A stretch of 64,000 nt of DNA from an uncultured Oscillospiraceae bacterium. GTDB lineage: Bacteria > Bacillota > Clostridia > Oscillospirales > Acutalibacteraceae. The first letter of the stretch is position 1, and each line of letters begins with the position of its first letter. The notes under the pieces are model-generated. The model did no database searches. It saw only the letters and a program-made list of their open reading frames with translations, and was not told the origin of the DNA. The position numbers and the translations under genes were made by a program. Positions 6,725 to 53,645 of this stretch are shown in pieces. The stretch covers positions 5,491-69,490 of the forward strand of contig UQFM01000002.1 of NCBI GenBank assembly GCA_900540295.1, in the 5' to 3' direction.

Positions 6725-7035
6725 AAGCTTGTCATTCTGCGCGTTCGCGAAGAATCGCACACGGCACGGAGTAAATCTGATTCTCGGTAGGGCGCGGGCT
6801 TGCTCGCGCCGCAGAATTTCATTAGATTTTTCGGACGAACACAGTTTGCCCCTGCGGGATTGGGATGTGTCTTTGGATTGTGCGAATTTCGCGGGCGATT
6901 TGTGAATCGCCCCTACACAGTCGGCGTGTTGCCGTTGGGGTGTACGATTTTTTTACGGGCGCGCAATGCACGCCCCTACGGGTTTGTCCGTTTGCGGGTC
7001 GCTGGGGATACGGCTGCGCGAAATTTTATCGGATT
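6725..7035. repeat. REP-like repeat cluster R1 (module A at 6731-6760 plus several hairpin-CTAC units)
   Basis: Contains TGTCATTCTGCGCGTTCGCGAAGAATC, GGGCGATTtgtgAATCGCCCCTAC and GGGCGCGCAATGCACGCCCCTACGGG. Members of the same family recur at eight other loci. Confidence 0.8.
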
Positions 7036-8291: not shown

Positions 8292-8609
8292 ATGATTTTT
8301 GCAGTTTGCAGTTTCGGCGAACACGGCGCGGCGGGATTTACCGTGCAGGGGCATTCGGGCAGTGCCGAAGCGGGCGAGGATATCGTCTGTGCGGCAGTTT
8401 CCTCGGCGGTCTATATGGCGGTGAATACACTTACCGATGTGCTGATGCTCACACCCGAAACGGAAGTACGCGACGGATTTTTATCTGTGCGGCTTCTGAA
8501 ACAAGAGACCGAAGCTGCGCTCCCGATTTTAAAAGGGCTTGCCCTGCATCTTCGGGGGCTTCAGGAAGAATATCCCGATTATATCCAATTTGAAAGAGGT
8601 GCACTGTAA
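8292..8609 (+). CDS. prp: ribosomal-processing cysteine protease Prp
   Basis: 105 aa between rplU and rpm[19 protein letters not shown] is typical of Prp. Confidence 0.85.
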
Positions 8610-8893
8610 TGCTTAAGATTAACATTCAGCTTTTCGCGCATAAAAAAGGTATGGGTTCGACCAAAAACGGTCGTGACTCCGAATCCAAAAGACTCGGCGT
8701 AAAGCGTGCGGACGGTCAGTTCGTTTTGGCGGGCAACATCCTCGTCAAACAGCGCGGCACGCACATTCACCCCGGCGAGAATGTAGGCAGAGGTTCCGAT
8801 GACACCCTGTTTGCGAAAATCGACGGCAAAGTGAAGTTCGAGAGAATGGGCAAAGACCGCAAAAAGGTCAGCGTCTATGCTGTTGAACAGTAA
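8609..8893 (+). CDS. rpmA: 50S ribosomal protein L27 (with Prp-cleaved N-terminal extension)
   Basis: [32 protein letters not shown]... Confidence 0.9.
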
Positions 8894-8911
8894 TTGCTGT
8901 AAAGCTTGATG

Positions 8912-8949
8912 AAAAGGACAGAGAAGCACGGCTTCTCTGTCCTTTTTTA
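8912..8949 (+). terminator. rho-independent terminator of the rplU-prp-rpmA operon
   Basis: GGACAGAGAAGC-acg-GCTTCTCTGTCC followed by TTTTTT. Confidence 0.8.
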
Positions 8950-9059
8950 TGTCGGGGGTCAATTTATGATAAAGCACAGGGGCAAATGCTTTTTTCCTGT
9001 GTTTTTATTTTCTATTCGGACACGTGCGTTATGGTTATGCAAGCAAGCCTTTTGCATAG

Positions 9060-9165
9060 CAGGCCTCTACGGCGTGTTTTGCCGATGACCCAATTCTGCC
9101 GCAGAATGGTTTTCATTTTGTCGATCTCACGAAGAAATTCGATTTGGGATGTTAATTTTTGACTA
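9060..9165 (-). pseudogene. remnant of the 5' end (~35 codons) of the HD-domain gene found intact at 10808..11395
   Basis: Revcomp reads ..SQKLTSQIEFLREIDKMKTILRQNWVIGKTRR, versus the intact MDSQKLTSQIEFLREIDKMKSVLRQNWVIGNARR. The ATG is destroyed, the copy carries several synonymous changes, and similarity breaks after codon ~35. Confidence 0.7.
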
Positions 9166-9352
9166 TATTGTAGGGGGCGACGGTCTCGCCTGCCGGCTTG
9201 GTCGGTGCTTCTGCATACTTCCGTATGCAGAGGTCTCCACCGGAGACCCGCACCCCGCCCTACCGAGAATCAAATTCATCCTGTGCCATGTGAGATTCTT
9301 CGCTGACGCTCAGAATGACAAGTCTGCGCAAACTGTGTAGGGGCGGATGTCC
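9166..9352. repeat. REP-like repeat cluster R2 (module A reverse at 9292-9322)
   Basis: TGTAGGGGGCGAcggtcTCGCC..., CCCTACCGAGAATCAAATTCATCC and GAGATTCTTCGCTGACGCTCAGAATGACAAG. The same edge architecture is seen in R3. Confidence 0.8.
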
Positions 9353-9469
9353 TCGTTTGATACCATTTCAGGTAACAGATTAAACCGTTTCATTTCAAGA
9401 CTCTAATCTGTTACCCATGTCCTTACACTCCTGTTACCTTTCTTTACTCTTGACAGTCCTCATCCGCCC

Positions 9470-10537
9470 CTACGGTTCGCATATTAACTGCGTCGTTGCC
9501 GAATCCATCGCGCGCAATGCCTTTTGCGCCCATACATTCTGCGGCTCGATTTGCAAAACGAAACGGAGCCTGCCGATTAAATGCGCCGCGTACCGCTCGG
9601 CGTTCGGCACGCCGTTTTCTATAAAATCCGTTCTGTCGGCGTGCAAAATGCTGTCGGCAACACCGAATTTTAATGCGTAATAGACTTCTTGGCGCAGACC
9701 GCGCTTGTAATCGGCAGACACAGATACTTTTTCATTCACGGTAAGCCCCGTCACGCTTTGACGGGTCGCATTCGTAAAGAATTTGGTTTTGCGCTCGTTT
9801 AACACAAAGCCCATTTCGCGGAGCATTGCTTGCGCTTTTTGATAAACCGCATACAGCGGCACATCTGCCGAAAAGGTCATATCGTCACAGTAGCGCGTGT
9901 AGGCAATGCCGCGCGCGGCACACCACTTGCCGAGGTTGTCGTCAAAATTGCGCATAACCAAATTGGAAAGCGCGGGCGAAGTCGGCGCACCTTGGGGAAG
10001 CGCTTCTTCCCGACAGCAGAGGGTGGTCAGAAGCACGCCGACGGATTTCGGGAAATAGCGCGTGTGGAATGCGGCACTGTAAACCTGCCCAAAGCGGATG
10101 CTGCCGAAAAAATCCGTGATATCCAGCTTTAAAAGATAGCGTTTGCCGACGTGCGGGGCGGCATTTGCGCGCAACGAACTGCCGGGTGCATAAGCCGTTG
10201 CATACGGCGAAATCGGCAGTTTTTGCAGAATCTGCCGCAGAATACGGACTTGCAGTGCGCGAAGCTCTGCGTTCGGCACATACAGTCGGCGCACGCCGCC
10301 GTTCTTTTTGCGGATTGTCACCGCGCGGTACGCATCGTCTGCGTGATTCCAATAATTGTACAGCTTGCGTCTGCCGATTTTTAAGCAAGCCGCAGTTTGG
10401 TAGGTATCATACAGAAATGGCAGGGGCTGTACTAAGGTATAATCCAATACCATTTCGGTTGCCGCCGCAATGCCGAATTTCCGCACAAATGCCATATCGC
10501 ATTCCGAAAATCGGACGGTATCTCCCAGCACTTGCAT
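9470..10537 (-). CDS. retron-type reverse transcriptase
   Basis: 355 aa. RT motifs: RKKNGGVRRL (domain 1); NAAPH (retron-specific NAxxH) in ANAAPHVGKRYLLKLDITDFFGSI; LPQGAPTSPALSNLVM; YCDD catalytic box; VTG in RQSVTGLTVN. RBS TGGAGTGA sits 6 nt upstream of the ATG. Confidence 0.9.
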   Translation of the reverse strand: MQVLGDTVRFSECDMAFVRKFGIAAATEMVLDYTLVQPLPFLYDTYQTAACLKIGRRKLYNYWNHADDAYRAVTIRKKNGGVRRLYVPNAELRALQVRILRQILQKLPISPYATAYAPGSSLRANAAPHVGKRYLLKLDITDFFGSIRFGQVYSAAFHTRYFPKSVGVLLTTLCCREEALPQGAPTSPALSNLVMRNFDDNLGKWCAARGIAYTRYCDDMTFSADVPLYAVYQKAQAMLREMGFVLNERKTKFFTNATRQSVTGLTVNEKVSVSADYKRGLRQEVYYALKFGVADSILHADRTDFIENGVPNAERYAAHLIGRLRFVLQIEPQNVWAQKALRAMDSATTQLICEP

Positions 10538-10562
10538 ACAAGGTCACTCCAAAAAATAAAAA

Positions 10563-10761
10563 TCCGCACTTCGCAGTACAAAATGACGCGGTAAAAGCGC
10601 AGGCGAACCCGAAAATCACGCAGTGATTGGTAGTTCGTCGGAGCGTTACCGTGCAACGTTTTTTCCGTGGGAAAAACGAGCATCGGGGATGGAAAACCAA
10701 GCGGCGACTCGCCGCTCTGCTTGAAACTGTTTTCAAGCTGTACACTACTGCAAAGTGCGGA
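10563..10761 (-). ncRNA. retron msr-msd non-coding RNA (candidate)
   Basis: A 16-bp inverted repeat a1/a2 spans 10746-10761 / 10563-10578 (TACTGCAAAGTGCGGA vs revcomp TACTGCGAAGTGCGGA) with one G-U position. A G lies immediately 3' of a1 as a candidate branch point. The 5' part has two short stem-loops (GCUUGAAA/UUUCAAGC and GCGGCG/CGCCGC). The 3' part has a long interrupted hairpin (CGGUAA..CGAAC..AAUCAC-ugc-GUGAUU..GUUCG..UUACCG). It ends 25 nt before the RT start. Confidence 0.75.
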
Positions 10762-10771
10762 ATATATACTA

Positions 10772-10800
10772 ATCATATCGGATATGTGGCGGGGTGTCAA
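10772..10800 (-). promoter_or_regulatory. consensus sigma-A promoter driving the retron ncRNA-RT transcript
   Basis: Minus strand reads TTGACA, 17 nt, TATGAT. The predicted TSS is ~4 nt upstream of a1. The -35 box lies 7 nt after the HD gene stop. Confidence 0.7.
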
Positions 10801-10807
10801 TACGGCA

Positions 10808-11395
10808 TTATTTCAATAGCCCTTTTTTGTAACACGACTCCACGGCAAACTCCACAAATGCCCAAAGCGCGGGAAGAACCTCTTTGGTCAACGCATTGCG
10901 TGCATAGACCTGTTCGCGGGTGACGGTGCGCCCTTTCCAAGAGGCACCGTCCGTATAGTAGTTTAACAGTAGGGGCTGTAAGCGGTCAATCGCGGCGGCA
11001 TACTGCGCATCGTCGGTTTCGGCTTTGTCGAATTCTTCCCATAGTGCGCGGTAGGCTTTGCCCTGCTCGTCGGGCAGGAGCGCTTCCACGCGGTCAGCGG
11101 CAAGAGCTTCGCGTGCCTGCTGTGTTTCCACAACGTCCTTGTCAAAACACGGTGTGTCGCCCGCATAGATTTCCACCAAATCGTGAACCAACAGCATACG
11201 GACGGCACGGTCAATATTGACTGTGGGCTTCGCGTATTCAGAGAGCGTGAGCGCCATCATCGCCGCGTGCCACGAGTGCGCGGCGTCGTCCTCACGGCGT
11301 GCGTTGCCGATGACCCAATTCTGCCGCAAAACAGATTTCATTTTGTCGATTTCTCGAAGGAATTCAATTTGAGAGGTTAATTTTTGACTATCCAT
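10808..11395 (-). CDS. HD-domain phosphohydrolase, YfbR-like 5'-deoxynucleotidase family
   Basis: 195 aa. AAHSWHAAMMAL and LLVHDLVEIYAGDTP match the YfbR HD motif. Co-oriented with and immediately upstream of the retron. Its 5' 105 bp is duplicated as a fragment at 9060-9165. Confidence 0.8.
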   Translation of the reverse strand: MDSQKLTSQIEFLREIDKMKSVLRQNWVIGNARREDDAAHSWHAAMMALTLSEYAKPTVNIDRAVRMLLVHDLVEIYAGDTPCFDKDVVETQQAREALAADRVEALLPDEQGKAYRALWEEFDKAETDDAQYAAAIDRLQPLLLNYYTDGASWKGRTVTREQVYARNALTKEVLPALWAFVEFAVESCYKKGLLK

Positions 11396-11437
11396 TTATA
11401 TCCGCCTTTTCTTTTGATAGTTGGTTTTCGACTATAC

Positions 11438-11690
11438 ATGTAGGGGGCGATTTTTTACATCTGCATGTACTTGCGTTTACAAACCGTAGGGGCGTGCATT
11501 GCGCGCCCGCCGAAGTCTGATGAATTTTGCGGACGGACGAGGACGTCCGTCCCTACGCGCAAATCCAATTCATTTTGTACTGTGGGCAGGACGGACAGCC
11601 ACAAGGGCTGTCCCTACGGGTTGCGAATCAAATTCACCTTGTTCTGTGTGCGATTCTTCGCTGCGCTCAGAATGACAGATTGTTCCACAT
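11438..11690. repeat. REP-like repeat cluster R3 (module A reverse at 11650-11678)
   Basis: Contains CGTAGGGGCGTGCATTGCGCGCCC, GGACGGACGAGGACGTCCGTCCCTACGCG, GGACGGACAGCCacaaGGGCTGTCCCTACGGG and GCGATTCTTCGCTGCGCTCAGAATGACAG. Confidence 0.8.
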
Positions 11691-11694
11691 TCCG

Positions 11695-14600
11695 TCAATG
11701 CACCAAATAGCCGAAAACTTCACGCAGGGTATCTAGCGGCGTTTGGCTGTCGCCGATTTTTACGGCAATGTGCTTTTTGCCGCAGTCCGCAACCGACACT
11801 CTGCCGCGCAGTGCGCCTGACAGGTTCAATACCATTGAGGTATCCATTTCGTGGACATATAAAAGCACGCTTTGTCCCTTTTGCCCGATTTCGTAAATGC
11901 CCTTTGCCGCCGCCGTGTTGCGCAGTAAGGAGATGTCAATCAGCCCCTCTACCGAGCGCGGTATTGCACCGTAGCGGTCACGAAGCTCGTCGCGCACATC
12001 TGCCGCGTCCTCTGCGGAGCGAATATCCGCGATACGGCGGTAAACGGCAAGCCTCTGCGGAATGGTGTCGATGTATTTTTCGGGAATGTGCGCATCAATT
12101 TGCATATCGATTAAGCAGTCTTTTTGCTTTAAGGGATTTTGTTCGCCCTTTTCCTCGCTGACGGCTTCGCCCAACAGCTGTAAGTACATATCATACCCGA
12201 CCGCTTCCATATGCCCGTGCTGCTGCGCGCCCAAAACATTGCCCGCCCCGCGGATTTCGAGGTCGCGCATCGCGATTTTAAAGCCCGACCCGAATTCCGT
12301 GTATTCGCGGATTGCCGACAGTCTGCGGTTCGCAATCTCCGACAACTCTTTGCCGCGCGTGAATGTGAAATAGGCACTGGCACGGCGCGCACTTCTGCCG
12401 ACGCGTCCGCGAATCTGGTGCAGCTGTGCAAGGCCCAAACGGTCCGCGTCCTCAATAATCAGCGTGTTGCAGTTGGGGACGTCCACGCCCGTTTCAATAA
12501 TCGTGGTGCATACGAGAATGTCAATATCGCCTTCCAACAGCCGCCGCCAAATATCGCCGAGTTCATCCTCTGCCATTTTGCCGTGCGCCACGGCGACGCG
12601 TGCCTCGGGAAGCAGTTCCGCGATTTCGCCTGCACGCTGGTCAATGGTTTCCACGCGGTTGTGCAGGAAATACACCTGCCCGCCGCGCCGCAGTTCTTTT
12701 TCCATCGCCTGTAACAGAATGCCCATATCGTATTCAATTACATAGGTCTGCACGGGGGAGCGGTCCTGCGGGGCTTCCTCAATGACCGACATATCACGGA
12801 TGCCCGTCATCGCCATATTGAGTGTGCGCGGAATCGGCGTTGCGGACAGCGTCAGCACGTCTACCGTGGGGAACAGTTCCTTTAATTTTTCTTTCTGCGC
12901 CACGCCGAACCGCTGTTCTTCATCCACAATGAGCAATCCCAAATCCTTGAATTTTACGTCCTTGGAGACAAGTCGGTGCGTGCCGACAATCAAATCTATA
13001 TTGCCGCATCGCAAATCTTTGAGGATTTTTTCCTGCTGACGGGCGGTGCGGAAGCGTGAAATCATTTCCGTTTCAATCGGGAAGCCCTCAAAGCGGTTTA
13101 AAATGGTGCGGTAATGCTGTAATGCCAAAATCGTGGTCGGCACCAAAATAGCGCATTGCTTGCCGTCCGCTACGCATTTGAATGCGGCGCGCAGAGCGAC
13201 CTCGGTTTTGCCGAAGCCTACGTCGCCGCAAAGCAGTCTGTCCATCGGGTAGCTTTTTTCCATATCGCCCTTGATTTCGTCAATCGCGCGTAGCTGGTCG
13301 GCGGTTTCCTCATAGGGGAAACGACGTTCAAAGTCACTTTGCATATCAATGTCGGGGGAGAAGGCGTACCCGGGGGCGTTTTGCCGTTTGGCGTAGAGCG
13401 CAATAAGCTGGTCTGCCATATCCTTGACCGCCGTGCGCACGCGCGAACGCGTTTTTTCCCATTCCTTGCCGCCGATGCGGTTCAATTTTACGGTGCGTCC
13501 CGTTTCCTCGTGCGGACCGATGTATTTGGAAACCAAATCCAGCTGTGTAACGGGGACATACAGCACATCGCTTTTGGCGTAACGGATTTTAATGTAATCC
13601 TTGGTGATTTTGCCGACTTCTAATTTCTGAATGCCGTCAAATACGCCGATGCCGTGCGCCGCGTGGACAACATAGTCGCCTTTATGCAGTTCGTCTAAAG
13701 AGTGCAGTCCCTGTCCCTTTTTAAACCCCGCGCGGGATTTGCGTTTCGCCTGTACGGCGGCGCGGGTATAGGTATAGACATAAAATTTTTCGTGCGGATA
13801 AGAGAATCCGTAGGAGAGCGTTCCCGAAAGCACTGTCACGCGCCCTTTCGGGAATGCGTTCGGCGTTACGGGGAAATACAGCGCGGGAATGCCCTCGGCT
13901 TCCAAATCCTCTGCGAGGGTTTTGGCGGATTTTTCCGTGCCGCCGAGCACAACGACCGTCGCATCCTTTTGCAGGATGGGCTGAATATCCTCGCAAAGTA
14001 TATCCAGCTTGCCGTTCCAGCCGGGCAGTTGTGTCGCAGTAAAGGTGACAAGGTCTTTTACAGGTGTGTCAAAGCTCCCGCGTGCAAAATTGTCAAGATA
14101 AATGACGCTGTGTTTTTCGTAGGCACGGAACAGCTCGGCAGGCGTTAGATGAAATTTATCTACACCCTTACAAAGCTGTCCTTCCTCCAAAAGTGCCTTG
14201 ATTTCTTCCTGTATCAGCTTTGCGGAGGCGTTTGCGCGCTCTTTCACATTGGCGCTTTCACAGATGAAAACAAATGTGTTTTCATCTGCATAGTCGAAAA
14301 CTGTCTGCGCACTTGAAAAAGCGAGCGGCAAGTACTTGTCGGTGGAGTTTAATTTCACACCGCTTTTCAGTCGGTCAATATCACTGAACAGTGCTTCTTT
14401 TTGCTTGGCGGCGTGCTTGCCCTTCAGTGTTTTCGAGAGGGCTTCGATTTTTTCAATCAACACGCGGTCGCTGTCAAACAGTACTTCTTTGGCAGGCATT
14501 AAAGCGAATTCCGTCAGGCGTTCGTTGCGGCGCTGAGAACGAATATCGAAGTAAGACATACTGTCTACCGTGTCGCCGAAGAACTCCACGCGCACGGGGT

Positions 14601-15165
14601 TTTCCTCCCCGGGCGAGAACAAATCAAGGATTCCGCCGCGCAAAGAAAACTGCCCTGCGCCTTCGACCATATCACAGCGGGTGTAGCCGCTTTCAAGCAG
14701 TACGGAAACAACCGATTCAATTTTAATATCTTTGCCGACTTTTAAGGTACAGGCGCGTTTTTGCAGTTCCTCGGGCGGAACGGTATACTGCATCGCTGCC
14801 GAAACCGCACAGACCACCGCCTGTACATTGCCCGCAAGCATTGCCGTCAGCGCCTTTAAGCGCCGCTGTTCGTATTCGTGCGAGCGTGTTTCGGTTGCCG
14901 TGTGAAACACAAATTCACGTTCGGGGTATAAAAGCGCCGACATGCCGAGGGTGTTTAAATCCTCGGTAAGCTTTGTTGCGCTTGCCTCATCGGGCATGAC
15001 GATGAGGGCGCGTTTCCTGAGCGCGGCGCAGAGCGCGTCGGCAATATGGGCTTTGTGAATGGCAGAAAGCCCCAAAACACCGAGCGGCAGACGCCGTTTC
15101 TGCACGGCGGTCAGCACAGCGCGGTATTCAGGGGAGTCTTTGAGAGATTCTCTGAATCCGGACAT
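11695..15165 (-). CDS. mfd: transcription-repair coupling factor
   Basis: 1156 aa with the UvrB-homology N-terminus, RecG-like SF2 helicase motifs and a TRG motif. Confidence 0.95.
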   Translation of the reverse strand: MSGFRESLKDSPEYRAVLTAVQKRRLPLGVLGLSAIHKAHIADALCAALRKRALIVMPDEASATKLTEDLNTLGMSALLYPEREFVFHTATETRSHEYEQRRLKALTAMLAGNVQAVVCAVSAAMQYTVPPEELQKRACTLKVGKDIKIESVVSVLLESGYTRCDMVEGAGQFSLRGGILDLFSPGEENPVRVEFFGDTVDSMSYFDIRSQRRNERLTEFALMPAKEVLFDSDRVLIEKIEALSKTLKGKHAAKQKEALFSDIDRLKSGVKLNSTDKYLPLAFSSAQTVFDYADENTFVFICESANVKERANASAKLIQEEIKALLEEGQLCKGVDKFHLTPAELFRAYEKHSVIYLDNFARGSFDTPVKDLVTFTATQLPGWNGKLDILCEDIQPILQKDATVVVLGGTEKSAKTLAEDLEAEGIPALYFPVTPNAFPKGRVTVLSGTLSYGFSYPHEKFYVYTYTRAAVQAKRKSRAGFKKGQGLHSLDELHKGDYVVHAAHGIGVFDGIQKLEVGKITKDYIKIRYAKSDVLYVPVTQLDLVSKYIGPHEETGRTVKLNRIGGKEWEKTRSRVRTAVKDMADQLIALYAKRQNAPGYAFSPDIDMQSDFERRFPYEETADQLRAIDEIKGDMEKSYPMDRLLCGDVGFGKTEVALRAAFKCVADGKQCAILVPTTILALQHYRTILNRFEGFPIETEMISRFRTARQQEKILKDLRCGNIDLIVGTHRLVSKDVKFKDLGLLIVDEEQRFGVAQKEKLKELFPTVDVLTLSATPIPRTLNMAMTGIRDMSVIEEAPQDRSPVQTYVIEYDMGILLQAMEKELRRGGQVYFLHNRVETIDQRAGEIAELLPEARVAVAHGKMAEDELGDIWRRLLEGDIDILVCTTIIETGVDVPNCNTLIIEDADRLGLAQLHQIRGRVGRSARRASAYFTFTRGKELSEIANRRLSAIREYTEFGSGFKIAMRDLEIRGAGNVLGAQQHGHMEAVGYDMYLQLLGEAVSEEKGEQNPLKQKDCLIDMQIDAHIPEKYIDTIPQRLAVYRRIADIRSAEDAADVRDELRDRYGAIPRSVEGLIDISLLRNTAAAKGIYEIGQKGQSVLLYVHEMDTSMVLNLSGALRGRVSVADCGKKHIAVKIGDSQTPLDTLREVFGYLVH

Positions 15166-17349: not shown

Positions 17350-17697
17350 ATTTATGTTATTTGTTTGTCATTCTGAGCGAAGCGAAGAATCTCACATCGC
17401 ACAAAGTAAATTGTACAATCGGTAGGGCGGGGAAGATTTCCCTATTAGGGAAAATGTCACAAAGTGACAAAAGGGTGATGGCGTAGCCGTAACTTGCCCC
17501 TGCCGCAACTCGGTACAAAATTTCTACTCTGCTCGGGCGCGCAATGCACGCCCCTACGTTCGGTGCGTTTCCGTAAAATTGTGCAGATTCCGCGGGCGCT
17601 TCGTGAAGCGCCCCTACGATTTTTGCGTTGCCATTAGCATTGTGCAAAATCCAACCTTGCTCGGACGGACGGGGACGTCCGTCCCTACGCGGTACAC
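17350..17697. repeat. REP-like repeat cluster R4 (module A forward at 17355-17384)
   Basis: TGTCATTCTGAGCGAAGCGAAGAATCTCAC, then GGGCGCGCAATGCACGCCCCTACG, GGGCGCTTcgtgAAGCGCCCCTACG and GGACGGACGGGGACGTCCGTCCCTACGCG. Confidence 0.8.
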
Positions 17698-27832: not shown

Positions 27833-28197
27833 GGCAATGCACACCCCGTAGGGGGCGACGACTCGGCGCCCCGCAAAAATCTGCACAAACCGTAGGGGCG
27901 AATGCCTCCCTTGTGAAAGGGAGGTGGCACGGCGAAGCCGTGACGGAGGGATTCCCACCCGCGAAATCCGTGCAAACCAACGGCGGGGCACACACCCGTA
28001 GGGGCGTGCATTGCGCGCCCGCACATTTCGCGCAAATTGACGGTTGTGTACAAACCCCGTAGGGGCGAACTGTGTTCGCCCGATGAAATTTGCTGAAACT
28101 TTGCGGGTCGTCGCGGACGCCGACCCCTACAATTGTGCATCCAATTTTAATTGTTCTGTGTAAGAGTCTTCGCCTAAGGGGCTCAGAATGACAAATT
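27833..28197. repeat. REP-like repeat cluster R5 (module A reverse at 28164-28196)
   Basis: Four or more CGTAGGGGCG-hairpin units (GGGCGAACtgtgTTCGCCC, GGGCGTGCATTGCGCGCCC, GGGTCGTCgcggaCGCCGACCCCTAC) followed by GAGTCTTCGCCTAAGGGGCTCAGAATGACAAAT. Confidence 0.8.
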
Positions 28198-53321: not shown

Positions 53322-53645
53322 GTAACCCCGTAGGGGCGGATGCCTTCATCCGCCCGCCCGCAATCTGATGAAACTTCGCGGACGGACAAGGATGTCCGTC
53401 CCTACGCGTAGGATGAAAATATAGCACAACCTGTAAGGGGCGGGTTATTCCCCTGACAGGGGAAATGTCTGCAAAGCAGACAAAAGGGTTCCCGTTTTCG
53501 GAGAAAATCCACGCCCGCCCGAGTGCAGGTGGATTTCACACAAAATCGGTGGTGATACACAAACCGCGTAGGGGCGAACTGTGTTCGCCCGCCGAAGTCT
53601 GCTATAATTTTACGGAACAACACAGAGGTTGTTCCCTACACCGTA
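53322..53645. repeat. REP-like repeat cluster R9 (hairpin-CTAC units only, no module A)
   Basis: CCGTAGGGGCGGATGCCTTCATCCGCCC, GGACGGACAAGGATGTCCGTCCCTACGCGTAGG, CGTAGGGGCGAACTGTGTTCGCCC and GGAACAACacagagGTTGTTCCCTACACCG. Confidence 0.8.

Follow-up and report, generated by a model that had tools for sequence, protein, structure and literature searches.

The locus considered here lies in a stretch of 64,000 nucleotides (the window) from an uncultured gut Firmicute of the Oscillospirales type, where a retron stands next to the gene of a small HD-domain phosphohydrolase and remains of a second copy of that gene are found on the other side of the retron. The question is whether the HD protein is the missing partner of the retron and how the two copies came to flank it. 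The features concerned are as follows.

8609..8893, plus strand: rpmA (L27; Ribosomal_L27, 3.7e-38), convergent with the decayed HD copy; native right-hand flank, the same HD-rpmA junction being present in L095
9035..9076, minus strand: decayed HD copy (HD2), 3' piece, last 13 codons and stop (ending in HAVEACYAKGLLA and the stop), by the match with L095
9069..9166, minus strand: decayed HD copy (HD2), 5' piece, codons 2-35, 88% identical to 11294-11391
9167..9336, minus strand: R2, REP-like cluster upstream of the decayed HD copy (repeats D2 and D5, alignment)
9337..9473, no strand assigned: 137-nt REP-like element bounded by inverted repeats (GTAGGGGCGGATG...CATCCGCCCCTAC), from the sequence
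9470..10537, minus strand: retron reverse transcriptase (RT), 355 aa, Ec107-like (clade 2), by PADLOC, RVT_1 and motifs
10560..10763, minus strand: retron ncRNA (msr-msd), by inverted repeat, fold and covariation
10772..10800, minus strand: retron promoter, TTGACA-17 nt-TATGAT, 11/12 consensus match
10808..11395, minus strand: HD1, intact 195-aa HD_3/HDDC2-like phosphohydrolase (Pfam HD_3, HDDC2-type structure matches)
11396..11694, minus strand: R3, REP-like cluster between mfd and HD1 (repeats, alignment)

The retron and its reverse transcriptase

The RT is encoded by the minus-strand open reading frame 10537..9470 (355 aa), which matches RVT_1 at 5e-23. The best PADLOC model is RT_Ec107-like (1.3e-119), with 397 bits versus 304 bits for the best RT_III-A model, the RT_III-A models being second-best at 3.5e-91 to 1e-70. 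Retron RT models range from 1e-119 to 1e-49, versus 1.7e-17 for the group II intron model. The retron-specific set of motifs is complete in the translation and includes NAAPH (NAxxH), VTG (VTGLTVN) and YCDD, the last being the variant of the box found in Ec107, or RT-Eco5 (PMC6868368). Judging by the profile scores and the YCDD box, the RT appears to group with Ec107 and not with the effector-linked types. The window RT also has about 45 extra, conserved residues at its N terminus.

The ncRNA is closed by an inverted repeat, a1 (10761..10746) and a2 (10578..10563), which recurs in the corresponding place in about 60 homologous loci. It comprises two msr hairpins, one of them the invariant GCGAGTCGC hairpin, and an msd stem. 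The fold has an energy of -82.3 kcal/mol (z = -5.4), compensatory changes were found in 29 of the 37 pairs in an alignment of 24 sequences, and the G after a1 is invariant in this alignment. An Rfam scan of positions 8800-11800 yielded chance-level matches only and no retron msr family. A counterpart of the window promoter, GCCGT(TG)TATTGACA...TATACT, is located 5' of a1 in four related loci (L089, L096, L098 and L100). The window contains an intact retron, with the RT and, directly upstream of it, a structured ncRNA closed by a1/a2 and conserved in relatives; the first-pass annotation, which placed such a retron directly after a 195-aa HD gene, was right as to promoter, ncRNA and RT. It is likely that the sigma-70-type promoter drives the ncRNA of about 200 nt together with the RT, and that the conserved G after a1 serves as the priming site from which the RT copies the msd into an msDNA of roughly 100-120 nt.

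The absence of an effector in cis would also be expected of a decaying, non-functional remnant that has lost its effector and has no current role, and a PRTase-type partner may have been lost from the Ec107 branch, as suggested by Mestre et al. (PMC7736814). However, selection on the RT is purifying (dN/dS 0.10-0.14 versus relatives), none of its catalytic or retron motifs is damaged, the promoter differs from the consensus at one position of 12, and the helices of the ncRNA are maintained across the family by the compensatory changes. The protein database contains many RT homologues of more than 50% identity, and the locus is conserved in 8/8 sampled assemblies of the species, the entire architecture being 96-100% identical in these independent assemblies. 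A remnant of this kind is very improbable.

The HD gene and its neighbourhood in relatives

HD1, the minus-strand open reading frame 11395..10808 (195 aa), matches HD_3 at 9e-49 and the YfbR-like family at 1.9e-12. The closest solved structure is 3kh1 (4e-47); HDDC2 was matched at 2e-17 and YfbR at only 5e-5. The score of 31.7 bits is below the NCBIfam YfbR equivalog cutoff (NF003009) of 122. Since the protein is HD_3/HDDC2-like and falls under this cutoff, its substrate can only be presumed. The gene has a dN/dS of about 0.05. Some enzymes of the HD superfamily, such as bacterial dGTPase-type defence enzymes and SAMHD1, are antiviral and deplete dNTPs. They have the HD metal-dependent phosphohydrolase fold in common with the window protein, which, unlike them, is small and HD_3/HDDC2-like, matches no PADLOC defence model and is encoded by a single housekeeping gene beside mfd.

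As reported earlier, no known effector is encoded beside the RT; apart from HD, the neighbours are mfd, pth, rpmA, prp, rplU and HlyIII. A PRTase-like or winged-helix gene beside the RT is absent both from the window and from 80 homologous loci. The spacing of HD and retron was also given correctly: 7 nt (TGCCGTA) separate the HD1 stop TAA (10810-10808) from the -35 box TTGACA. An operon-like coupling of the two is nevertheless contradicted, as this spacing is not conserved and the retron has a conserved promoter of its own. In L089, L096 and L098 the spacer between HD and the retron promoter is occupied by REP clusters of about 100-400 nt, versus 7 nt in the window.

The first-pass annotation considered HD to be a candidate novel retron effector and named beforehand two findings that would speak against it, namely HD orthologues at this position in relatives lacking the RT, and RT homologues elsewhere that do not neighbour HD genes. 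Both were obtained. HD linked to mfd is present without a retron in four relatives. One of them, L095, is an exact empty site with the order pth-mfd-HD-rpmA-prp-rplU and an HD gene 93% identical to that of the window; L091 has mfd-HD-cation ATPase (HD 85% identical), and L092 and L093 have mfd-glycerate kinase-HD (82% and 75%). As these orthologues stand alone, HD seems to be neither toxic by itself nor dependent on the retron. As to the RT homologues, no gene of this HD family was found within 10 kb of the RT in the 79 loci L002-L080, where the RT is 46-71% identical, in a search by tblastn (E<=1e-5) and an HD-family HMM that gave one weak match, in L056. At least 1.5 kb of sequence was available upstream of the RT in 68 and downstream of it in 72 of the 80 loci. 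When the open reading frames within 4 kb were clustered, no neighbour family was present in more than 16 of the 80 loci, and the members of this largest family lie now on one, now on the other side of the RT.

HD adjoins the RT only where the latter is at least 78% identical, in closely related species (L089, L096 and L098-L100). As suggested, HD and the retron do remain together within one genus-level group, comprising these loci and the window species, but not outside it. The linkage occurs in four or five related lineages with differing downstream flanks of at least two kinds, the pair being followed by a cation ATPase gene in L089 and L096 and by rpmA in the window. The 64-kb window has none of the cation ATPase, DUF4015 or Rnf genes by which the retron of L089 and L096 is bordered. 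Co-transfer of HD and the retron explains the recurrent linkage; selection for the pair would do so too.

The L056 locus has an unrelated Ec107-like RT and the order RT-TatD-YfbR-type HD, in which the genes are only 5 nt and 2 nt apart. Its HD gene belongs to a different family, of PF12917 type. The L056 RT has a 99% twin on a 2-kb contig only, and its next relative is 55% identical. According to tblastn of all loci and a protein search, the arrangement remains a singleton, and a metagenome scan for it gave one irrelevant match. By rough estimate, chance alone would place about one YfbR-type gene within 10 kb of the RT in a set of 80 loci.

These comparisons bear on the reading in which the retron of this genus-level clade has truly, and recently, recruited HD as its partner or effector and the pair moves as a functional module, with, for example, an HD nucleotidase gated by RT-msDNA or an HD protein that processes msDNA. 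That HD and RT are adjacent in L089, L096 and L098-L100 as well as in the window species, despite different outer flanks, is consistent with it, as are the compact L056 arrangement and the similar synonymous divergences of RT and HD, which fit long co-inheritance. The solitary HD orthologues of 75-93% identity, the absence of HD_3 genes beside RTs of 46-71% identity, the variable REP-filled spacer with a separate retron promoter and the lack of a PADLOC match for HD argue against it, and L056 is a chance-level singleton with another type of HD. Such recruitment is quite improbable. On the basis of the sequence comparisons, HD1 appears to be a conserved, mfd-linked housekeeping neighbour, an ordinary gene rather than a new retron effector.

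Two HD copies around the retron

The stretches 9069-9166 and 11294-11391 form a direct repeat of 98 nt with 88% identity. This corresponds to the HD 5' fragment without ATG that had been noticed beyond the RT, but the copy is not merely a 5' end, and a 3' piece is present as well. In the 5' piece both the ATG and the RBS are gone, with a 49-nt deletion between GACTAT repeats. The 3' piece is identical to the HD 3' end of L095 at 40 of 42 positions, versus 25 of 42 for HD1 of the window. The two pieces are joined at the microhomology CACGCCGT, with an implied internal deletion of about 452 nt, and the native HD-rpmA spacer follows directly after the 3' piece. The window sequence 9076..8301 matches L095 6547-7305 at 88.9% and is collinear with it from the HD 3' end through rpmA and prp to rplU. 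The presence of an HD 3' end, a stop codon and the native rpmA spacer after the 5' piece indicates that the relic is a complete second gene with internal deletions.

Two other origins of the relic were rejected. It is not a target-site remnant of retron insertion into HD, because it retains both gene ends and, downstream, the native spacer. Nor was the REP junction at codon 2 accepted as a recombination joint; the 49-nt deletion between GACTAT repeats was preferred, since the GTAGGGGGCGA unit also lies upstream of HD1.

The REP-like clusters at the two HD 5' ends have a common edge architecture, in agreement with the first-pass annotation. In both R2 and R3, GTAGGGGGCGA is found by the HD start and a GAATCAAATTCA...CGCTCAGAATGACA unit at the far edge, and the shared edge units D2 and D5 are 85-100% identical. 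A unit homologous to R3 is present in the mfd-HD spacer of L095, and 9349..9289 is 93% identical to the sequence 3' of the RT in L098-L100. The 137-nt REP-like element adjoins the 3' end of the RT gene, the stop codon of which lies inside the element. The sequence GTAGGGGCG occurs in 13 copies in the window versus 0.32 expected.

The differences between the HD2 5' piece and HD1 are mostly synonymous (pS 0.39, pN 0.05), which suggests that the divergence built up while both were functional alleles. HD2 ends in GLLA-stop, as in L095, and HD1 in GLLK-stop, as in the retron-bearing L089, L096 and L098 and the retron-less L091. The two types of end, together with the mainly synonymous differences, point to two diverged alleles and not to a young local duplicate. 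The last 90 nt or so of HD1 are unusually divergent in a sliding comparison with six HD alleles. No clear crossover was seen in this comparison or in the sliding identity over pth-mfd-HD versus L095 and L089, by which the species of the window, L089 and L095 are about equidistant.

The two copies flanking the retron make the proposed rearrangement footprint real and suggest a homology-driven integration or a duplication of an HD-retron segment. The same final layout is expected if a local tandem duplication of REP-HD came first and the retron was inserted between the copies independently, with no import of HD and retron together, and by layout the import route is not distinguishable from this. 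However, relatives have HD and the retron linked without any duplication, and the mainly synonymous differences and different allele types of the HD 3' ends are also at variance with it, so that a duplication preceding the retron seems very unlikely.

The preferred reading, to which a probability of about 0.82 is assigned, is that of an orphan, stand-alone Ec107-like retron with HD as a housekeeping neighbour, the flanking HD copies having resulted from recombination and decay. HD stands downstream of pth-mfd in the genus-level group whether or not a retron is present, and the retron probably became established on the 3' side of HD in an ancestral lineage from which a few related species descend, the linkage being kept since. 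In the window lineage, with the native order mfd-REP-HD-rpmA, a REP-HD-retron segment may have integrated with HD serving as homology, either by a Campbell-type single crossover, by homology-facilitated illegitimate recombination or through an equivalent tandem duplication, to give mfd-R3-HD1-retron-R2-HD2-rpmA. The redundant resident HD2 would then have decayed, the deletion between GACTAT repeats taking the RBS and ATG and a second one, between CACGCCGT repeats, taking codons 36 to about 183. Campbell-type integration and homology-facilitated illegitimate recombination duplicate the anchor gene. Likewise, the insert in the window lies between two REP-HD anchor copies, one of them decayed via microhomology deletions; this route is deduced from the end product, no circular intermediate, integrase or donor genome having been identified.

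In this lineage the imported HD copy would have been retained and the resident one lost, as expected of a recruited partner. The survival of the retron-linked copy after duplication is weakly suggestive, yet it is a 50% outcome by chance. That the Ec107-like retron and the HD_3 phosphohydrolase are a co-selected two-gene module, moving together and displacing the resident HD, is quite improbable. If it were true, HD would be the first known cis partner of the orphan Ec107 branch, and the RT-TatD-YfbR order of L056 together with the Ec107/pyrE adjacency would hint at a wider tie of this branch to nucleotide salvage.

Relation to known retrons

The Ec107 branch was described as stand-alone, with no associated protein, and its clade 2 is mostly gammaproteobacterial (Mestre et al. 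2020, PMC7736814). Ec107 itself adjoins pyrE, a housekeeping gene of nucleotide metabolism, and according to the authors this adjacency is perhaps not functional (PMC7736814). The window locus resembles Retron-Eco5 (Ec107) in its best RT model, its YCDD box and its msr-msd-RT cassette without an associated protein, as well as in its chromosomal, intergenic, palindromic-repeat-rich site with no integrase or prophage, and in its housekeeping neighbour from nucleotide metabolism, pyrE there and HD here. It differs in its host, an Oscillospirales-type Firmicute, in the N-terminal extension of the RT and in the presence of copies of the neighbouring gene on both sides of the retron. Type III-A retrons are the sister group of the Ec107 branch (Mestre et al., PMC7736814) and use a PRTase-like effector, in some cases along with a winged-helix protein; Retron-Eco11 is an example (PMC12746101). 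Their models are the second-best for the window RT, but neither of these genes adjoins it.

The retron belongs to the already known effector-less Ec107-like kind. With no effector encoded in cis, its msDNA may, as in the rest of this branch, be used together with a partner in trans or for a toxin-free purpose. The main value of the analysis is a correction: a nucleotide-metabolism gene placed 7 nt from a retron promoter mimics a new effector but, compared across relatives, proves to be a housekeeping neighbour, and the adjacency of Ec107 and pyrE is an earlier, very similar case that invites the same error. Meanwhile, the Ec107-like stand-alone branch has radiated widely in gut Clostridia and is well conserved there, with an ncRNA clearly supported by covariation, and this radiation offers many natural variants for asking what an effector-less retron is for. 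The HD copies around the retron have left a legible trace of the way in which such an element may spread without mobility genes, namely between related genomes by the homology of a neighbouring core gene.

Layout of the locus and features of the retron

The retron lies between an intact HD-domain gene (HD1) and a decayed second HD copy (the relic); R2 and R3 are REP-like clusters.

15165..11695, minus strand: mfd
11694..11396, after mfd in minus-strand order: R3, REP-like cluster
11395..10808, minus strand: HD1, 195 aa (Pfam HD_3, 9e-49; YfbR-like, weaker, 1.9e-12)
270 nt, next in minus-strand order: HD1-RT intergenic region
10537..9470, minus strand: reverse transcriptase (RT), 355 aa (RVT_1)
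9473..9167, after the RT in minus-strand order: R2, REP-like sequence
9166..9069, minus-strand order: copy of the HD 5' end
Plus strand, convergent: rplU-prp-rpmA operon and HlyIII

The direct repeat formed by 9069-9166 and 11294-11391 comprises 98 nt with 88% identity. The stop codon of HD1 (TAA, 10810-10808) is followed, after 7 nt, by TTGACA-17 nt-TATGAT, the sole 11/12 promoter match within the region. The first-pass annotation had described the HD gene, the RT, the 7-nt spacing and a copy of the HD 5' end beyond the RT, and its description held in full when the sequence was rechecked. R2 and R3 have in common a proximal GTAGGGGGCGA unit and a distal GAATCAAATTCA...CGCTCAGAATGACA unit, and a homologous unit is present in the mfd-HD spacer of a relative's locus, L095. 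The REP-like repeat family (GTAGGGGCG/CGCCCCTAC palindromes plus TGTCATTCTGAGCG...GAAGAATC units) occupies window positions 6730-6980, 9337-9473, 11486-11690, 17549-17617, 27892-28067, 44245 and 53330-53576. Its 9-mer is present in the window in 13 copies (0.32 expected), at clustered, intergenic positions, and REP-like units are frequent break points of relatives' contigs.

As was found by the PADLOC search, the RT is matched best by RT_Ec107-like (1.3e-119), followed by RT_III-A (3.5e-91), with the other retron types lower; in NCBIfam, the retron models gave sub-threshold matches only, and group II intron and DRT matches were far weaker. The translation contains the retron hallmarks NAxxH (as NAAPH) and VTG, plus a YCDD box, a variant noted for RT-Eco5/Ec107 (PMC6868368). 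Members of this RT family carry an N-terminal extension (about 45 aa, strongly conserved; window 10537-10400, residues 1-47) that precedes the match to the PADLOC Ec107-like model; F10, D14, F17, G22, F41, Y43, D44 and Q47 show no variation among 34 sequences. The TAG stop of the RT forms part of a REP-like palindrome, CCGTAGGGGCGG (window 9465-9475). The relatives' loci L098-L100 have TAT at this position (L098:3080-3100) and three extra codons before the stop (..CEPYGR*), and the 11 C-terminal residues are unlike those of L089, L096 and L097. A longer RT protein, P0002 (L098:1796-3097, 433 aa), was rejected as an annotation artefact, as the database start is placed about 78 codons too far upstream, so that the reading frame spans the ncRNA region.

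An msr-msd ncRNA of about 200 nt, with a folding energy of -82.3 kcal/mol (z = -5.4), lies between promoter and RT and is closed by an inverted repeat of 16 nt (10761..10746 with 10578..10563; a1/a2). For comparison, 80 genomic loci with RT homologues 46-82% identical were fetched (L001-L080), and an a1/a2 pair was found at a matching distance from the RT start in about 60 of them. The 3' end of a1 is conserved (..TTTGCAGTA, then G), and the outer parts of a1 and a2 vary with compensation. RNAalifold predicted 37 pairs in a 24-sequence alignment; for 29 of these, at least one sequence has both sides changed with pairing kept. Among these 29 are the near-invariant GCGAGTCGC msr hairpin and 13 of the 14 pairs formed by a1 with a2. 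We infer that the RT would prime from the conserved G after a1, yielding an msDNA of roughly 100-120 nt. The dN/dS of the RT is 0.10-0.14 (against four relatives), and eight independent assemblies of this species share the whole architecture at 96-100% identity. A dead retron seems very unlikely, with selection, covariation and the promoter all standing against it; judging from its sequence, the retron is real and intact.

Relationship of the HD gene to the retron

The first-pass annotation proposed the HD protein as a novel retron effector. This proposal is not supported, since no member of the HD family was found in the 80 RT loci and HD genes occur at the mfd-linked position without an RT, two outcomes that the first-pass annotation had itself named as refuting it. 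A tblastn search of the 80 loci with the HD protein gave no match, and an HMM made from 120 HD homologues and run on the loci's six-frame ORFs found no family member, the sole match being a weak one in L056. At least 1.5 kb is available upstream of the RT in 68 of the 80 loci and downstream in 72; L001 (RT 82% identical), which resembles the relative's locus L089, has just 700 nt upstream and is uninformative. No consistent partner family emerged when the ORFs up to 4 kb from the RT were clustered for the 80 loci. The commonest neighbour family reads by eye as a WYL/HTH-type regulator (for example, L034:7649-8821); it is present in 16/80 loci, with no fixed side or orientation, and absent from the window.

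The HD family numbers 3522 proteins at E<=1e-10, and in four relatives the gene occupies an mfd-linked position without an RT: pth-mfd-HD-rpmA-prp-rplU in L095 (HD 93% identical), an exact empty site matching the window context, mfd-HD-cation ATPase in L091 (85%), and pth-mfd-glycerate kinase-HD in L092 and L093 (82% and 75%). The HD dN/dS is about 0.05, and the protein has no match in PADLOC. Its closest solved relative is 3kh1, an uncharacterised phosphohydrolase (4e-47), followed by human HDDC2; E. coli YfbR matches at 5e-5 only, and the NCBIfam YfbR equivalog scores 31.7 bits, far under the cutoff of 122.

In L056 (5667-8076), an Ec107-like RT 48% identical to that of the window heads an operon-like arrangement: a TatD-family DNase gene (PF01026, 1.6e-79) comes 5 nt after the RT, and a true YfbR-family HD gene (PF12917, 1.3e-72) 2 nt after the TatD gene. 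Neither a TatD nor a YfbR gene was found in the other loci of the 80 searched. For the L056 RT, a 2-kb contig encodes a 99% identical twin, and no other relative is closer than 55%. Meeting a single YfbR-type gene within 10 kb in a set of 80 loci is, by a rough estimate, close to the chance expectation.

HD and RT adjoin in L089 (mfd-HD-RT-cation ATPase; RT 83% identical), L096 (HD-RT-ATPase; 78%) and L098-L100 (CAT-HD-RT; 85%); the contig of L097 (RT 79%) begins just ahead of the RT. These loci all come from close relatives of the window organism; Mfd is 95-96% identical in L089 and L091. A lineage-specific partnership of HD with the retron seems very unlikely. Comparison of L089 with L091 delimits the retron to an indel (about 1.5-1.8 kb) separating HD from the ATPase gene.

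In the relatives, the HD stop codon and the conserved retron promoter (GCCGTTGTATTGACA...TATACT) lie about 100-400 nt apart, with REP clusters filling the gap, which makes the 7-nt spacing in the window a derived state. The last ~90 nt of HD1 (10808-10900) are 68-76% identical to six compared alleles, against about 73-93% for the rest of the gene. This divergent 3' end, along with the missing REP spacer, points to local remodelling where HD meets the retron. The most similar HD alleles, those of L095 and L096 (91% DNA identity, dS 0.33), differ in retron presence and in the HD 3' flank (rpmA versus retron and cation ATPase), so this flank is a recurrent rearrangement point in the group.

The second HD copy and the probable history of the locus

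The rearrangement footprint noted earlier around the retron is supported, and is now explained by two [REP-HD] units flanking it. Window 9076..8301 is collinear at 88.9% with L095 6547-7305, which comprises the last 14 HD codons, the HD-rpmA spacer with its terminator, rpmA, prp and rplU. The 42 nt at 9076..9035 (CACGCCGTAGAGGCCTGCTATGCAAAAGGCTTGCTTGCATAA, ..HAVEACYAKGLLA*) are identical to the L095 HD 3' end at 40/42 positions, against 25/42 for HD1, whose end (..KKGLLK*) is near the ..GLLK* of retron-bearing L089, L096 and L098 and retron-less L091. The 5' piece of the relic (codons 2-35) joins the 3' piece at CACGCCGT, a motif found near nt 97 and near nt 549 in HD alleles; we read the junction as the outcome of a deletion of about 452 nt through microhomology. 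The GTAGGGGGCGA unit, which stands 49 nt ahead of the HD1 start, directly abuts codon 2 in the relic; a deletion of 49 nt bounded by a pair of GACTAT repeats took away the relic's start codon and RBS. The 3' remnant and the REP units shared by R2 and R3 thus show that two complete [REP-HD] units existed, with the retron between them.

Local duplication of HD followed by retron insertion would produce the identical final layout. Differences between HD1 and the relic are mostly synonymous (pS 0.39, pN 0.05), and at the 3' end the two represent different allele types; they look like diverged alleles and not like a young local duplicate. This order of events is considered very unlikely. The simplest history would be import and decay: a native mfd-REP-HD-rpmA lineage would have gained a [REP-HD-retron] segment from a relative, with HD providing the homology for a Campbell-type single crossover or homology-facilitated illegitimate recombination, and the resident HD copy would have decayed afterwards. 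Sequence comparison with relatives did not locate a crossover point. The closest retron is that of L098-L100, which has the RT C-terminal tail in common with the window; its downstream sequence is 93% identical to window 9349..9289, and all three contigs break inside the REP unit after the RT. The duplication may therefore predate the split between the window and L098-L100.

We put at about 0.8 the probability that this is a stand-alone Ec107-like retron producing msDNA from its own promoter and functionally independent of the housekeeping HD gene, with the relic as a record of its entry. It belongs to a known type: no associated protein was found for the Ec107 branch of clade 2 (Mestre et al., PMC7736814), and Ec107 itself adjoins an orotate phosphoribosyltransferase gene, an adjacency that is seen in only 2/59 branch members and may be non-functional (PMC7736814). 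An effector-less retron with such a neighbour is thus a situation already described, and both an effector in trans and a non-defence role have been proposed for stand-alone retrons (PMC7736814). The locus is a cautionary case on reading an adjacent gene as a retron effector. It also points to orphan retrons having radiated widely in Clostridia, and it clearly exemplifies how a retron spreads via homology of a flanking core gene.
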